From: Clostridium isatidis
GTDB lineage: Bacteria; Bacillota; Clostridia; Clostridiales; Clostridiaceae
NCBI RefSeq assembly: GCF_002285495.1
Contig: NZ_CP016786.1
Location: 1,744,420 to 1,768,419 of the forward strand
DNA: 24,000 nucleotides
Direction: 5' to 3'
The notes under the pieces were generated by a model. The model had not been told where the DNA came from. It was given only the letters and a program-made list of their open reading frames with translations, and searched no databases. A program made the position numbers and the translations under genes. Each line of letters begins with the position of its first letter. Within the stretch, counting starts at the first letter, position 1. Shown piece after piece: positions 3,087 through 21,410 of this stretch.

Positions 3087-3118
3087 AAAAAACTCCTAGG
3101 GGCAGCCCTAGGAGTTTT
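3087..3118 (-). terminator. Rho-independent terminator closing the mgl operon
   Basis: 13-bp perfect stem AAAACTCCTAGGG / CCCTAGGAGTTTT with a 4-nt loop. On the minus strand it is followed by a U-run (UUUUUUAUU). A second smaller hairpin (ATAATTCAGC..GCTGAATTAT) sits at 3061-3083. Confidence 0.75.
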
Positions 3119-3124
3119 ATCCTT

Positions 3125-3159
3125 AATTGTCCATTGTCAATTCTCAATTGTAATCTGTA
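3125..3159. repeat. Short degenerate heptamer tandem (5 units)
   Basis: AATTGTC CATTGTC AATTCTC AATTGTA ATCTGTA read directly from the + strand. It lies between the small ORF stop and the terminator. Confidence 0.5.
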
Positions 3160-10817: not shown

Positions 10818-11603
10818 TTATCTTTTTTTCTTATCGTCCTTTTTTTTATCGTCCTTTTTCTTTGGTATTTCACATCTGCCAGCATTTCTTAGGCACTTAA
10901 TTATTTCTCTATAAGCTTTCTTATAACCAAGTACGAAGCCTTCTTTAAGTCCTTTTTCATGTCCTTCTGCGAAGCCTTTTTGTTTTCCTTCTGCAAAGCC
11001 CTTGTCACGGCCAACGCATAATCCGTTTGAGTAACCTCTCTTGTATCCAACATCATATCCTTTTTCATAACCTGCTTGGAAGCCAATCTTGTAGCCTTTT
11101 TCATAAGCTGCTTCTGCTAACTTTTCAGCTTTGCTTAGGCCCTTCTTATATCCTTTTTGGAAGCCTTCTTTCACTCCCTTTTCAAAGCCTAGTTTCTTGC
11201 CCTTTTCTAAACCTTTTTCAAAGCCTTTAGTATAACCAATCTTTATACCTTTTTTAAGGCCCTTTTCAAACCATTTTTTGCAATCAACTATTTTATTTTG
11301 TTTTTTATCTTCTTCTTTTTCTTTGCGATCTTTATTAAATTTCTTTTCATAATCTCTTTCAAAGTCTTTTTCAAAATCTTCTTCGTAGTCATCATTTTCG
11401 TCGTCTTCATAGTCATATTCATAGTACTCTTCGTACTTGTCTTCTTGGTCATCTTCATAGTCGTCAAAATAATATGAAGTATATTCTACTTCATCTTCTT
11501 CATAATCATCATCTTCATAAACTTCTTCATAATCTTCATATTCTTCATAGTCGTTAAATTCAAATTCATAATCGTCATTAGTAAAACCATATTTTGTTTC
11601 CAT
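10818..11603 (-). CDS. Hypothetical protein: Asp/Glu/Tyr-rich N-terminus, GxxxG-repeat helical region, Lys-rich tail
   Basis: 261-aa ORF with SD AAGGAGAG about 8 nt upstream of the ATG. Strongly biased composition. See findings. No confident family assignment. Confidence 0.7.
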   Translation of the reverse strand: METKYGFTNDDYEFEFNDYEEYEDYEEVYEDDDYEEDEVEYTSYYFDDYEDDQEDKYEEYYEYDYEDDENDDYEEDFEKDFERDYEKKFNKDRKEKEEDKKQNKIVDCKKWFEKGLKKGIKIGYTKGFEKGLEKGKKLGFEKGVKEGFQKGYKKGLSKAEKLAEAAYEKGYKIGFQAGYEKGYDVGYKRGYSNGLCVGRDKGFAEGKQKGFAEGHEKGLKEGFVLGYKKAYREIIKCLRNAGRCEIPKKKDDKKKDDKKKR

Positions 11604-11699
11604 CTTTTTTCTCTCCTTGTTATTATTTTTTATAATACATAGATATGAAGCTAATAATTTATTTGTTAATGATTTTTAAGAAAATTTGACTGTGTAAGC

Positions 11700-11930
11700 T
11701 TATTCATACAATAATGAAACTACCTCTCTTACTAGTTTTTTTACCTTTGATGGTAACTTAGATAATGCCTTCTCCCTTTTCTCTTCATCCTCAATTTGAG
11801 CTATCCTCATAACCTCTTGTTGAACTCCTGGTATGGAATTGAATTCAGAGGCTATTCTATTGAATTTAGCTGCAAAGTTAGGATCCTGCATCTTAGCCTG
11901 TAATTTCATTAATAATTCAATACCATTCAT
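11700..11930 (-). CDS. Hypothetical small protein (76 aa), predicted helical and soluble
   Basis: ORF with a good SD (TTAGGAGT, 8-nt spacer) and ATG. No motif I recognise. No obvious terminator between it and the downstream 261-aa gene. Confidence 0.6.
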   Translation of the reverse strand: MNGIELLMKLQAKMQDPNFAAKFNRIASEFNSIPGVQQEVMRIAQIEDEEKREKALSKLPSKVKKLVREVVSLLYE

Positions 11931-12028
11931 ATTTTTACTCCTAATCTTACTTTAATTTTATATTATTCATAATTATTTTCTTTGTTACATAATTCTTTAT
12001 CAAAGTTTATACATGACTAAGCAAAAAT

Positions 12029-12058
12029 AAAAAGAGCTGTCCTAAGACAGCTCTTTTT
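12029..12058 (-). terminator. Rho-independent terminator after the CNNM-family gene
   Basis: 13-bp stem AAAAAGAGCTGTC / GACAGCTCTTTTT with a 4-nt loop, overlapping the stop codon. On the minus strand it is followed by UUAUUUUUGC. Confidence 0.75.
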
Positions 12059-18555: not shown

Positions 18556-18635
18556 ATATATTTTTTATAAATATAGGCTGTATGTATTTATTTTCACATA
18601 GTAGCTTTTAATAGCTATTTATTTCTTATGAAAAT

Positions 18636-18713
18636 GATAGGATTTTACATATTTACGAGTAATCCTATCAATTATTGTGTAATGTAGAATTTTCAAGGTT
18701 CATTCTACATTAC
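18636..18713 (-). terminator. Two hairpins downstream of the GNAT gene (weak terminator candidates)
   Basis: GTAATGTAGAAT / ATTCTACATTAC (18679-18713, abutting the TAG stop) and GATAGGATT / AATCCTATC (18636-18669). The second is followed by AUUUUCAU on the minus strand. Neither has a strong U-tract. Confidence 0.4.
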
Positions 18714-19261
18714 TATCTTAGTTCTTTAGAAAGAATGTATCTCCTTAACCCTCCGTATTTTAGCTTATCTTTTTTTATTTTATAACCTGAATTTAAAAAT
18801 GTGTTTAGACTATATTTATTATAAGGTGATACTGTTGCTGCAAGAAGCTCCATTCCATCTTCTCTTGCAATTTCCTCTATTCTCTCGCATATTATCCTCT
18901 GTAATCTGTTACCCCTATACTCTTCCTTAACAACTGTTGTCTCAATTTGGGCAGTTTTTAAAAGTATTTCTCCTTCTAAGGCTAAATCATAAGCATAATT
19001 TTCCTTATCATATCCCTTTTTTAAATAAACCCCCATCGCTATTAAATTATCTTCTTCATCTAAACACCCTATTACTTTTCCCCTTTCAAAGGATTTTATA
19101 AATTCCTCCCTATCTGTCTTTGCAAATAACTGCTTATCTTCTAATCCCTTATATATTTCTTCCTGCAGTTCCATAATTTTATCTAAATATGATAGATCCA
19201 ATTCCTTAAAAAAAGCATCTATAATTTTACCACTTCTATTTTTAATTCTTAATTTAGTCAT
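18713..19261 (-). CDS. GNAT-family N-acetyltransferase
   Basis: 182 aa with GNAT motif A context (IETTVVKEEYRGNRLQRIICERIEEIA) and a downstream motif B-like region (SPYNKYSLNTFLNSGYK). SD AAGGGGTG is 8 nt upstream. Confidence 0.8.
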   Translation of the reverse strand: MTKLRIKNRSGKIIDAFFKELDLSYLDKIMELQEEIYKGLEDKQLFAKTDREEFIKSFERGKVIGCLDEEDNLIAMGVYLKKGYDKENYAYDLALEGEILLKTAQIETTVVKEEYRGNRLQRIICERIEEIAREDGMELLAATVSPYNKYSLNTFLNSGYKIKKDKLKYGGLRRYILSKELR

Positions 19262-19277
19262 AATACATCACCCCTTT

Positions 19278-19357
19278 AATTCAGTGTGGAGTTTTGAGTT
19301 TGGAGTGGGGAGTGTGGAATTCAGTGTGGAGTTTTGAGTTTGGAGTGCTGAGTGGGG
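19278..19357. repeat. Left arm: 2 x 40-nt direct repeat built from GAGTnnn heptamers (C-poor on + strand)
   Basis: 19278-19307 and 19318-19347 are identical (AATTCAGTGTGGAGTTTTGAGTTTGGAGTG). The last 10 nt of each copy diverge (GGGAGTGTGG vs CTGAGTGGGG). The copy junction creates GAATTC. Only 3 C in 19275-19368. Confidence 0.9.
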
Positions 19358-19380
19358 AGTTGTTTGGGCTGGACAAGCTA

Positions 19381-19560
19381 ACTGATAACTACTAACTCAA
19401 AACCCAACTCCAAACTCCTAACTTCTAACTTCTAACTACTAACTCCACACTCCTAACTACTAACTCCACACTCCTAACTCCTAACCCCTAACTCCACACT
19501 TCTAACTACTAACTCCTAACTCCTAACTCCTAACTCCTAACCCCTAACTCCTAACTGTTT
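19381..19560. repeat. Right arm: about 25 tandem ACTCCTA-type heptamers (22 in unbroken phase, G-free on + strand)
   Basis: Hand parsing gives units starting at 19381, 19388 and 19395 (the last an irregular 12-mer). From 19407 they recur every 7 nt to 19560: 9 ACTCCTA, 3 ACTTCTA, 3 ACTACTA, 3 ACTCCAC, 2 ACCCCTA, 1 ACTCCAA, 1 ACTGTTT. There is a perfect 4x run at 19512-19539 and a perfect 2 x 21-nt repeat at 19435-19476. No G occurs from 19385 to 19556. Confidence 0.9.
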
Positions 19561-20145
19561 CTAACTATTTATAAAGTTGCTTATTGCAAGGTATGCCTTA
19601 ACATCAATCTTCTGTCCTGATTTTAATATTTCTCTTCCCTCTTCCTTAGTAATTAATTTTACTTCTATTTCTTCATCTGCTTCTAAATTTTCCAAGGATA
19701 CTTTTCCTTTGCAATTACAGCTAACCAAAGCAAAAGACTCATCTGTCATTCCCACTGAAGCATAGGTTTTTTCAATTGTCTTATTATAATCTATGTTAAC
19801 TAAATCTAATCCAGTTTCTTCTTTTAATTCTCTTTTAACTGCTTCCTCAAAAGTTTCATTTCCATCAATTAAACCTGCTGGAAGCTCTATAACAAAATCA
19901 TTAAGAGGAACTCTAAATTGCTTTATTATTACTAACTTATTTTCTTCTATATGTCTAGGAATTATTACAACCGCATCTATTTTATCTTTTTTCCCTTGAA
20001 AGAATTTATCATCTATCTCTTGTTTATTTTTTCTAGAAGCTATTGTCCACTTCTTATTTTCTCCAAGCTTATTAATATACTCTGCTTCATATAAGTTTAA
20101 AAATTTAGTTTGAGCTAGAGTATTGATTTTAGTTATTTTTCCCAT
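19561..20145 (-). CDS. NUDIX hydrolase, ADP-ribose pyrophosphatase-like
   Basis: 194 aa with a canonical Nudix box GLIDGNETFEEAVKRELKEETGL (GX5EX7REUXEEXGU). The N-terminal beta region is typical of ADP-sugar pyrophosphatases. Confidence 0.85.
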   Translation of the reverse strand: MGKITKINTLAQTKFLNLYEAEYINKLGENKKWTIASRKNKQEIDDKFFQGKKDKIDAVVIIPRHIEENKLVIIKQFRVPLNDFVIELPAGLIDGNETFEEAVKRELKEETGLDLVNIDYNKTIEKTYASVGMTDESFALVSCNCKGKVSLENLEADEEIEVKLITKEEGREILKSGQKIDVKAYLAISNFINS

Positions 20146-20198
20146 AAAATCACTCCAATGTCTACTATTTTATTCAATTTTTATTATACAATATATTA

Positions 20199-20227
20199 TT
20201 GTAATAAGCTTCTAAAATATGTATAAT
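20199..20227 (+). promoter_or_regulatory. Candidate sigma-A promoter for the AI-2E transporter gene
   Basis: TTGTAA (20199-20204), a 17-nt spacer, then TATAAT (20222-20227), about 30 nt upstream of the start codon. Confidence 0.4.
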
Positions 20228-20258
20228 ATTTCTAATAAAAATAAAAGGATGTGAAACT

Positions 20259-21410
20259 TTGAAAGAAATAGACGAAAAATTTAAGAAAAATTTATTATTA
20301 GGAACATTATTGATATCAATATATTTTATATTTTCAAACTTAGGTTATTTTTTAAAAGGCTTTAATGTTTTTATACAAATAATCAATCCATTTTTAGTTG
20401 GTTTTGCAATTGCCTTTGTATTAAATATCCCTATGAATTTTTTTGAACTAAATGTTTTTTCTTTTTTAGATACCAAAAAATATATTAAATATAGAAACTT
20501 CAAAAGACCATTGTCAATATTAGCTACTTTTCTAACAGTAATAGGTCTAATTACTGCACTAGCATTATTTGTTATTCCACAATTAACTTCTAGTGTTTCC
20601 ACATTACTTAAAACTATTCCTGGACACATGAGTTCTTTTGAAAGACTAATTTCTCAATATATAAATGATACTGAAATTTCTAAAGAAGTTTTACAAAAAG
20701 TTTCTTCAACAATTATGGCTGCATGGAAAGACTTATTCACTGTTGGCGGAGAAATTATTTCTAATTCTTTATCTAGTATTTTAAATACCACAATGAACAT
20801 AACTAGCGGCTTAATAAATTTTATTTTATCAGTAATTCTTTCAATTTATATGTTATCTAGCAAAGAAACATTAATTCATCAACTAAGGAAAATAATTTAT
20901 GCCTTTTTACCTAAAAAAGCTGCTGATAAACTTATTTATATAGGGAATTTAAGTAATATTACCTTTTCAAAATTTATTTCTGGCCAATGCGTAGAAGCTG
21001 TTATTTTAGGTACTTTATGTTTTATTGGAATGCTAATATTAAGAATGCCTTATGCATTATTAATAAGTGTATTGATTGCTGTTACAGCTTTAATACCGGT
21101 ATTTGGGGCCTTCATTGGAACAATACCTGCTGTTTTCTTAATTCTTTTAATAAGTCCTATAAAAGCCTTATGGTTTATTATCTTTATACTATTTCTTCAA
21201 CAATTTGAGGGAAATATCATCTATCCTAAAGTAGTTGGAAACTCTGTTGGTCTTTCAGCCCTATGGGTTATGATGGCCATGTTAGTTGGAGGAAGCACCT
21301 TAGGAATATTAGGAATGCTTATTGGTATTCCAATCTTTAGCGTTTTATATCAGCTATTAAAAGAAAAGACCAATAAGAAACTAAAAATGAAAGAAATTGA
21401 AATTGAATAA
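20259..21410 (+). CDS. AI-2E family transporter (PerM/YhhT-like, UPF0118)
   Basis: 383-aa polytopic ORF with the family's conserved C-terminal core (LIPVFGAFIGTIPAVFLILL...LQQFEGNIIYPKVVGNSVGLSALWVMMAMLVGG). It starts at TTG 20259 about 9 nt after AAGGA. Upstream in-frame ATG/GTG alternatives hit stops. Confidence 0.85.
   Translation: MKEIDEKFKKNLLLGTLLISIYFIFSNLGYFLKGFNVFIQIINPFLVGFAIAFVLNIPMNFFELNVFSFLDTKKYIKYRNFKRPLSILATFLTVIGLITALALFVIPQLTSSVSTLLKTIPGHMSSFERLISQYINDTEISKEVLQKVSSTIMAAWKDLFTVGGEIISNSLSSILNTTMNITSGLINFILSVILSIYMLSSKETLIHQLRKIIYAFLPKKAADKLIYIGNLSNITFSKFISGQCVEAVILGTLCFIGMLILRMPYALLISVLIAVTALIPVFGAFIGTIPAVFLILLISPIKALWFIIFILFLQQFEGNIIYPKVVGNSVGLSALWVMMAMLVGGSTLGILGMLIGIPIFSVLYQLLKEKTNKKLKMKEIEIE

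Follow-up and report, generated by a model that had tools for sequence, protein, structure and literature searches.

The cyanobacterial STRR repeats were described around 1990. Tandem intergenic heptanucleotide repeats represent a described class which, besides the STRR, includes TAACTGA (PMC4679880), GGGAATC/GGGGAYT (PMC4692102) and the Nostoc repeat TTTTGAA (bioRxiv 10.1101/2022.06.06.494920), with hosts amongst the Cyanobacteria, Beggiatoaceae and Bacteroidetes (PMC4679880) and in Xanthomonas and Nostoc (PMC4692102); the Firmicutes go unmentioned in PMC4679880. Heptameric SSRs are over-represented in bacteria according to Mrazek 2007, as cited in PMC4692102, and inverted pairs of heptamer arrays have already been noted (PMC4692102). 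The TAACTGA repeats show 7-nt indels and break assemblies, and S1, Csp and CsrA have been proposed as candidate binders, with no established function (PMC4679880); a 2022 preprint likewise states that the role of heptamer repeats has not been worked out (bioRxiv 10.1101/2022.06.06.494920). Our literature search found neither GAGTTAG/CTAACTC as a named bacterial repeat nor any description of heptamer arrays in Clostridium. Here, we have analysed such an array within a 24,000-nucleotide stretch of the Clostridium isatidis genome, hereafter the window.

Like the STRR and other heptanucleotide SSRs, the repeat considered here consists of tandem intergenic 7-nt units, with mixed related units in each array, and shares with them indels in 7-nt steps between strains, contig breaks, many loci per genome and occasional inverted stem-loop pairs. 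The TAACTGA unit has its TAACT core in common with the window unit, but the window array differs from the TAACTGA repeats in its Clostridium host, in the dominance of GAGTTAG/CTAACTC and in forming a large foldback with a conserved core. Arrays of the window's family mostly follow stop codons, whereas the BOGUAY arrays of Beggiatoaceae lie just upstream of start codons. The REP/BIME/REPIN elements of Enterobacteria and Pseudomonas are comparable in being dispersed and extragenic, in lying after genes or between convergent or co-directional genes, and in their transcript hairpins, inverted pairs and strain variability. Each REP is a discrete, imperfectly palindromic unit of ~35 nt that RAYT transposases spread, whereas the window element is made of non-palindromic tandem heptamers in unconstrained number, with no RAYT/Y1 transposase among the window proteins. 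MITEs such as the Neisseria Correia elements, and Drosophila Foldback, also have inverted arms of fixed polarity and copies that are intergenic and co-transcribed, and the arms of Drosophila Foldback are likewise built from short tandem repeats, but the window element showed neither a target-site duplication nor a defined length, no partner transposase was identified, and its family consists mostly of single arrays. Contiguous 7-bp units in direct and inverted orientation are also known from the heptad operators of the omega repressor (pSM19035) and from 7-bp iterons. Omega-type arrays comprise 7-10 units of one conserved sequence beside the gene for the binding protein, whereas the window has tens of heterogeneous units and no partner gene.

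The features of the locus are as follows, in the order in which they are met along the minus strand.

19561 to 20145, minus strand: upstream gene, a NUDIX hydrolase of 194 aa (Pfam PF00293, E 5.7e-13)
19561 to 19569, minus strand: last three NUDIX codons, AAT AGT TAG
19378 to 19560, minus strand: long arm of ~26 heptamers (from TRF, motif excess, unit register and strain differences in unit number and order)
19356 to 19379, minus strand: non-repeat core at the turn of the foldback, sense AGCTTGTCCAGCCCAAACAACTCC, the same in all alleles of the species
19278 to 19358, minus strand: short arm, two 40-nt blocks that read GAGTnnn on the plus strand (from TRF, inverted repeats I1-I11, fold shuffles and strain comparison)
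19262 to 19277, minus strand: GNAT translation-initiation region, sense AAUUAAAGGGGUGAUGUAUU followed by AUG, conserved in all alleles
19269 to 19274, minus strand: Shine-Dalgarno sequence GGGGUG of GNAT, unpaired in the predicted fold of the whole element
18713 to 19261, minus strand: downstream gene, a GNAT acetyltransferase of 182 aa, with sufCBDSU next (Pfam PF00583; synteny)
18642 to 18671, minus strand: promoter-like site TTGATA-18-TAAAAT in the GNAT-sufC spacer (10/12, by consensus match only)

At positions 19278-19560 there are thus ~26 CTAACTC-type heptamers, the 24-nt core and, in opposed orientation, a second arm built from two 40-nt blocks of GAGTnnn. TRF reports CTAACTC x25.9 at 19378-19556 (79% matches, 2% indels) and a 40-nt unit x2.0 at 19278-19358 (92% matches), whilst a two-unit probe gave 19 matches against 0.31 expected, a count that no shuffle reached; the 7-nt periodicity of a heptamer tandem array, as claimed in an earlier note made from the letters alone, is thereby confirmed. 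That note's description of a strand-asymmetric inverted array of GAGT-core heptamers is also supported, with 11 inverted-repeat pairs linking the two sides, up to 39 nt at 82% complementarity, and the complementary blocks lie where it had placed them (GTGTGGAGTT at 19284 and 19324, pairing with AACTCCACAC at 19441, 19462 and 19490, and GAGTTTGGAGT at 19296 and 19336, pairing with ACTCCAAACTC at 19407). Its G-free run at 19385-19556 (172 nt) proved to be the longest in the window, with a mononucleotide-shuffle maximum of 115, and its view of the 299-bp gap as non-coding holds, there being no plus-strand ATG, one CAT at 19266 and 6-11 stops per frame across the six frames. Only its count of C in the left arm needs amending, to 4 in 94 nt from 3.

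Read along the plus strand the units of the long arm are of CTAACTC type, and on the minus (sense) strand they read (GAGTTAG/GAGTGTG/GAGTTTG/TAGTTAG/AAGTTAG)n, opening with the motif AAACAGTTAGGAG directly past the NUDIX stop and presenting 9 AGGAG and 13 GGAG motifs, as counted from the unit list. The array also overlaps the final NUDIX codons AAT AGT TAG, as had been observed in the same note. AGTTAG is native to the end of the NUDIX gene and already amounts to one proto-unit of the array; NUDIX genes of relatives end AGT TAA. The sequence TAACTGA itself is present once, at 19379-19385 beside the core, and the dominant unit is CTAACTC. The short arm is ACTC-type and CUCC-rich on the sense strand, each of its blocks ending ...CTCCACACTGAATT, and it copies part of the long arm in inverted orientation, with the order kept. 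Its end, ...ACTGAATT, is separated from the GNAT ribosome-binding site by 3 nt and from the start codon by ~16 nt. The outer ends of the foldback are CAGTTAGGAG... and ...CTCCACACTG, so that the arms are inverted and ordered in the manner of terminal inverted repeats. Folding, which had been suggested as a check, bore out the arrangement: the predicted fold beats every dinucleotide shuffle on both strands (minus strand, z = -5.1; plus strand, z = -6.8). The order of units in the short arm counts for folding as well, the observed MFE being reached by 0/200 unit-order shuffles.

The earlier note did not recognise the element as any known kind, a view which stands in part. The 7-nt units are contiguous and without spacers, unlike CRISPR repeats of 24-48 nt with unique spacers; no transposase associated with the element occurs among the window proteins; and the foldback is followed by AAUUAAAGGGG, as opposed to the short GC-rich hairpin and U-tract that an intrinsic terminator requires. 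The readings as CRISPR array, IS end or intrinsic terminator are discounted, but the element does belong to a described class, that of the intergenic heptanucleotide repeats. Rfam 15 gave no gathering-score match in the window, the best permissive hits being to eukaryotic miRNA models at E ~1.

Both NUDIX and GNAT lie on the minus strand, a point that the earlier note had missed, and the sense RNA would therefore run from the NUDIX stop through (GAGUUAG)n, the core and the CUCC-rich arm to the GNAT ribosome-binding site. Neither a promoter nor a terminator was detected inside the repeat, with no terminator-like site in 18600-20400 or in L001, from the complete genome CP182825.1, and for this reason the element is probably transcribed within a NUDIX-GNAT message. 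The promoter-like site ahead of sufC suggests that suf has its own promoter, with GNAT being read through the repeat from NUDIX. In such a transcript the element would be expected to form a long, imperfect intercistronic hairpin which, in the predicted fold, leaves the GNAT ribosome-binding site free. We also considered whether the C-arm might sequester this ribosome-binding site with the G-arm acting as an anti-sequestrator, but the C-arm and ribosome-binding site alone are unstructured (MFE ~-8 kcal/mol, z +0.2 to +1.2), and sequestration is thus unsupported.

Comparison between strains shows how the array changes. An identical NUDIX protein is found on 21 contigs and an identical GNAT protein on 15, and both sets include CP182825.1; the closest sequences come from biogas and digester metagenomes, and GNAT homologues at ~60% identity occur in Clostridium sartagoforme, C. 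tertium, C. celatum and C. bornimense. Amongst strains with identical flanking proteins we observed single-heptamer differences in both arms, a 134-bp spacer and an IS3 insertion. In the window the G-type array comprises 21 units, compared with 11 + ~33 in CP182825.1 and 20 + ~26 in L002/L003, the two arrays in CP182825.1 and L002/L003 being parted by an AT-rich unique spacer of 134 bp. The C-type arm is short in CP182825.1, at ~4 units, and reaches 10-11 units in the window, L132, L133, L138 and L143, with single-heptamer differences between these versions. The C-arm of contigs L002, L003, L130, L131, L134 and L190, which represent at least four assemblies, contains an IS3-family element (HTH_Tnp_1 + rve), and many short-read contigs end within the array. 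We infer, from GC content and sample only, that the Ga0209537 contigs derive from the same organism.

Single-unit indels of this kind are a signature of slippage. The order of units in the window corresponds to the start of array 1 followed by the end of array 2 of CP182825.1, so the window allele is most simply read as a deletion between two direct arrays. Recombination between these two G-type arrays would have removed the 134-bp spacer in the window strain, with the consequence that the whole gap is repeat there; the claim that repeat fills the gap is correct for the window allele but does not extend to other strains of the species, which carry the 134-bp unique spacer or an IS3 element. 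The spacer of CP182825.1 was also considered as a dispersed or mobile module in its own right, and this was rejected as it was found at the NUDIX-GNAT locus only; it gave no match to the hydrolase region of relatives described below. Given that an IS insertion and several-fold changes in stem length are tolerated, the series argues against a finely tuned structure. The second array of CP182825.1 has a 21-nt super-period, GAGTTAG-TAGTTAG-GAGTGTG, which keeps one frame open and accounts for the calling of a 44-aa ORF through this array.

More distant relatives differ at the same site. In L144, where GNAT is 66% identical, the order is AI-2E transporter, NUDIX, a 327-aa alpha/beta hydrolase, GNAT and sufCBD, and there are no heptamers. 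In L139 (GNAT 79% identical) the hydrolase is fragmented and a 1.3-kb cassette lies between inverted heptamer arms, the units of which differ from those of the window (AGTGTGG and AGTTTTC on the left, AACTGAA and CTCCACACTCCAAAC on the right), with further heptamer arrays in a hairpin loop and the GNAT-sufC spacer. The sister species has TTTTCAG/CTGAAAA units at the same site, and these contain no SD-like motif. In the C. isatidis window the hydrolase is absent and the arms abut, and in L175/L215 GNAT and hydrolase are both absent, NUDIX being followed by a compact foldback of ~100 nt with the same core, which carries 3 substitutions. Foldback size spans ~100 nt (L175) to >500 nt (L001), with no target-site duplication recognised. 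Between these species the alignment is limited to the flanking genes, and L144, in which the element is absent, also differs at this locus by a whole gene. The arrays fill a decaying intergenic slot that holds an alpha/beta-hydrolase gene, intact or decayed, in more distant relatives.

The element is one member of a dispersed family, which answers positively the question of dispersal that the earlier note had raised. In CP182825.1 a second GTTAGGA array lies 20-30 kb away, positioned at the stop codon of a gene for an SDF transporter, with a terminator after it; the array at the SDF transporter is polymorphic in strain L411, and the ~43 kb of CP182825.1 concerned contain four heptamer arrays in total, two of them small and with other units. 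One 88-kb contig of a relative carries three arrays. A paralogous foldback, with a core bearing 4 substitutions, is found at an unrelated locus (L155/L184/L205) on the contig that carries the relative's copy of the NUDIX locus, such that a bipartite C-arm, together with a homologous core, occurs at two unrelated loci of one contig. A metagenome scan with the mixed pattern typical of the species returned 69 loci. At least 10 distinct low-GC loci share the GAGTTAG/GAGTGTG/GAGTTTG alphabet, often with a CAGTT(A/T)GGAG start just past a stop codon, followed by an intrinsic terminator, and an ...ACTG end recurs; the array lies between stop codon and intrinsic terminator in L156, L160, L161, L167 and L410. 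The same alphabet occurs in contigs of 0.28 to 0.67 GC, with complementary arms also in contigs of 0.5-0.67 GC, and most members of the family are single arrays without a second arm.

With each species represented by a single genome, we searched for three and a half AGTTAG-N units; among the matches listed, most were from Cyanobacteria and Bacteroidota, some from Ignavibacteria, Planctomycetota and Acidobacteriota, and a few from Clostridia. Among the loci of the matches listed there were 246 arrays of period 7, compared with no more than 11 for each of periods 5, 6 and 8-11, and the period-7 arrays use 76 different units. In viral contigs, three permuted heptamers used as controls gave 24, 48 and 39 loci compared with 83 for AGTTAG. 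AGTTAGG was consequently rejected as a special unit, being only 2-3 times commoner than the three permuted heptamers in these contigs; since permuted heptamers also form arrays the unit is only mildly special, and we give little weight to the sharing of AGTTAGG across phyla. The species-specific pattern had no matches in viral contigs, and blastn against plasmids also gave none. An AGT/ACT core was present in 35/78 unselected arrays, compared with 22 +/- 3.7 expected, and this modest enrichment is no more than suggestive.

Polarity and placement show several regularities. Where GAGT-type and ACTC-type arrays lie within 400 nt of one another the G-type arm is 5' in 35 cases, and the reverse order was found in 0. 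When any neighbouring heptamer arrays with strong skew are counted over the whole set of fetched loci, the G-rich array precedes the C-rich one in 56 cases and follows it in 7, of which 10 and 3, respectively, come from loci fetched with permuted control heptamers. Reading 5' to 3', the left neighbour of a G-type array is the end of a co-oriented gene in 100 cases and a divergent start in 36, based on crude ORF calls, and foldback sites lie between convergent genes in 9 cases, co-directional genes in 13 and divergent genes in 1. Foldbacks in named taxa fold strongly, for example that of Nostoc L009 (z = -12.4). There was no rule as to whether the stop-proximal arm is the longer one (5 vs 5).

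Taken together, we lean towards regarding the element as an intergenic heptanucleotide SSR foldback of the STRR/TAACTGA kind, driven by slippage, weakly constrained and probably forming a hairpin in the NUDIX-GNAT transcript, and hold this reading with some reservation. A long G-type array, (GAGTTAG)n on the sense strand, starts at the NUDIX stop, followed by the 24-nt core and a shorter inverted C-type arm, and the allele series shows units being gained, lost and reshuffled through replication slippage, in 7-nt steps, together with unequal recombination between arrays. Constraint would be weak because stem length varies several-fold and IS insertion is tolerated. Any effect is probably generic and REP-like, with the hairpin acting as a 3'-end barrier or as a site of double-strand processing. 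Pure neutral slippage does not explain the polarity, the placement at gene 3' ends, the scarcity of foldbacks between divergent genes, the alphabet shared across GC contents or the paralogous core, and it is the first two of these, with the paralogous core, that keep a REP-like role and a mobile foldback under consideration.

If the element were a functional transcript-end or intercistronic RNA element of the REP/BIME kind, which we consider possible but unlikely, a G-first foldback would be selected, and its hairpin would shield the 3' end of the upstream mRNA or be cut by RNase III. With this order a naked C-rich, G-free and Rho-loading-like segment would never be exposed from either direction, and the AGGAG units might also hold ribosomes, as the Bacillus STAB-SD stabilisers do. 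Such a role is consistent with the strong hairpins predicted here and in named taxa (z -5 to -12), with the C-arm being an ordered complement, with the 56 vs 7 polarity and the location of arrays at gene 3' ends, with the order of stop codon, array and terminator in the five loci named above, and with the 9 AGGAG motifs on the sense strand. It sits less comfortably with the several-fold variation in stem length, with a C-arm that is split by an IS in several populations, and with the sister species, whose TTTTCAG/CTGAAAA units at the same site offer no SD-like motif; as to Rho, the Cyanobacteria, which are not known to possess it, nonetheless share the polarity. Were the foldback instead mobile, spreading by copy-and-paste like a MITE or Drosophila Foldback, with heptamer TIRs and outer ends 5'-(A/T)CAGT(T/G)(A/T)GGAG, recognition of the ends would account for the fixed polarity. 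GAGT/ACTC pairs are always G-first, the CAGTT(A/T)GGAG start and ...ACTG end recur, a homologous core with a bipartite C-arm occurs at two unrelated loci of one contig, the same alphabet spans widely different GC contents, and L144, a more distant relative, lacks the element, all of which would be in line with mobility. We nevertheless regard it as decidedly doubtful, as we saw no target-site duplication and no uniform length, the family is largely made up of single arrays lacking a second arm, no associated transposase is present in the window, there are no plasmid matches and the specific pattern is absent from viral contigs. Furthermore, all three species have a native AGTTA(A/G) at the NUDIX stop, which speaks for seeding at the site itself, and composition-matched permuted heptamers form arrays too.

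We think it very improbable that the array serves to bind a protein, either as DNA, in the manner of omega repressor heptad operators, plasmid centromeres or iterons, or as an RNA sponge for CsrA, HutP, S1 or Csp that presents GGA or UAG every 7 nt. The 7-nt phasing, the 21-nt super-period in L001 and the presence of GGA, AGGAG and UAG-N4 motifs in the sequence would suit such a function, and S1, Csp and CsrA have been proposed for the TAACTGA repeats (PMC4679880). At the same site, however, sister species do not have the same unit sequences, genomes with arrays use 76 different units, copy number is unconstrained, and amongst the neighbouring genes examined no cognate regulator gene adjoins the element. 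That the array codes for protein or is an assembly artefact is scarcely credible: the 44-aa ORF called in CP182825.1 corresponds to 16 codons in L002, as read from the sequence, and to none in the window, where all six frames have stops, and the coding reading is rejected since the ORF is not conserved, whilst the occurrence of the element in a complete genome, as well as in many independent assemblies, speaks against an artefact. The slippage-driven SSR foldback remains our preferred account. The locus is a genuine case of the widespread heptamer repeats, new for Clostridium on our literature search, and not a unique new element.

The role of heptanucleotide repeats is still described as unknown in papers from 2015-2022 (PMC4679880, bioRxiv 10.1101/2022.06.06.494920). 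In this context the locus provides a Clostridium example with an unusually rich natural allele series, which includes single-unit indels, loss of a spacer, IS insertion and the stepwise loss of neighbouring genes. Three regularities need to be considered in any mechanistic model, namely the near-absolute G-rich-then-C-rich polarity, the placement at gene 3' ends and an alphabet that is common across GC contents. On the practical side, arrays of this kind break short-read assemblies and yield spurious small-ORF calls. A bolder reading, to which we give limited credence, is that heptamer arrays are made or maintained by an active polar process common to phyla, and that this locus is a copy of a dispersed 3'-end foldback whose G-rich arm is always 5' on both strands, acting as a bidirectional transcript-end element or being mobilised or bound by a conserved factor. 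If this were the case, then the strain-level allele series in Clostridium would offer a handle on a heptamer puzzle that has stood since the STRR repeats.

The foldback, the pair of opposed heptamer arrays in the NUDIX-GNAT gap, has insertions, gene losses and a called ORF around it among same-species contigs and relatives at the NUDIX locus:

L002 7088-7245, L003, L130 26-1265, L131, L134 and L190 (same-species contigs): IS3-family insertion in the C-type arm, with orfA (HTH_Tnp_1) and orfB (rve)
L139 1575-3001, L144 1888-2871 and L175 7194-7455 (relatives): stepwise loss of genes adjoining the repeat
L001 6789-6923 (= L129 2673-2807, L412 13020-13154; complete genome CP182825.1): called 44-aa ORF

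The C-type arm is interrupted by the IS3-family element in several same-species metagenome populations, and the element there stands between GNAT and most of the foldback. Among the relatives, an alpha/beta hydrolase gene is whole in L144, broken up in L139 and missing in the window species, and in L175 GNAT is missing as well, with a 25-codon ORF lying 3' of the foldback. The 44-aa ORF starts at AAAGGAGG-N7-ATG inside the unique spacer, the AT-rich segment between the two G-type arrays of L001, and runs through the second array (MFKQFGVRRLELVVRSVELGVRS...), in which three different heptamers form a 21-nt super-period that keeps one frame free of stops. Because the ORF has 16 codons in contig L002 and is absent in the window, the call is probably spurious.

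Further arrays, a repetitive gene and a DDE_Tnp_1 transposase gene were seen elsewhere in the same species:

L410 17288-17329 (CP182825.1) and L411 17290-17338 (another strain): second GTTAGGA-type array
window 3125-3151 (= L410 9741-9767): small array, AATTGTC x3.9
L412 3852-3882 (CP182825.1): array ACTGTAC x4.4, between convergent MoCF_biosynth and MntP genes
window 10818-11603, minus strand: gene for a protein of 261 aa that matches a Yae1_N-type repeat
L412 20654-20909 / L410 1-699 (CP182825.1): DDE_Tnp_1 transposase gene just beyond a CNNM-family gene

The GTTAGGA-type array of L410 begins within the final codons of an SDF-family transporter gene, with an intrinsic terminator after it; the L411 contig breaks off inside a longer version of it. 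The AATTGTC array directly follows a strong hairpin that resembles a terminator (AAAAAACTCCTAGGGGCAGCCCTAGGAGTTTTA, about 3089-3121 of the window). The DNA that encodes the Yae1_N-type protein repeats internally at periods of 9-24 nt, and the length of its product varies by strain (261 aa in the window vs 247 aa in L411). The DDE_Tnp_1 gene is not found next to the CNNM-family gene in L411 and, judged by ORF spacing, is apparently missing from the window too (about 11604-12056); on these sequence comparisons, it is a strain-specific IS insertion.

Repeats and hairpins also occur together in the relative L139 and in high-GC foldbacks:

L139 1906-2010: terminator-like hairpin (AAAAAGTGCGCAGCACTTT ... 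AAAGTGCTGCGCACTTTT)

The loop of this hairpin consists of heptamers in tandem (CTGTGAA/TTGTGCA x7.7, 21-nt super-period). The high-GC foldbacks (L165, L193, L194 and L209; GC 0.61-0.64) carry other GC-rich hairpin repeats in their central loops, for example GTGTCGGCTNNCGCCGAC and GTAGGGGCGATTCACGAATCGCCC, which appear to form a dispersed hairpin family of their own.

Across the heptamer-array loci L009-L128, counting only arrays more than 500 nt away from any selected array, AGT/ACT was the commonest trinucleotide pair in the heptamer units (35 of 78, vs 22 +/- 3.7 in shuffled units). The same core is also common to TAACTGA and to the STRR units CCCCAGT and CAACAGT. These observations may point to a shared preference in sequence.
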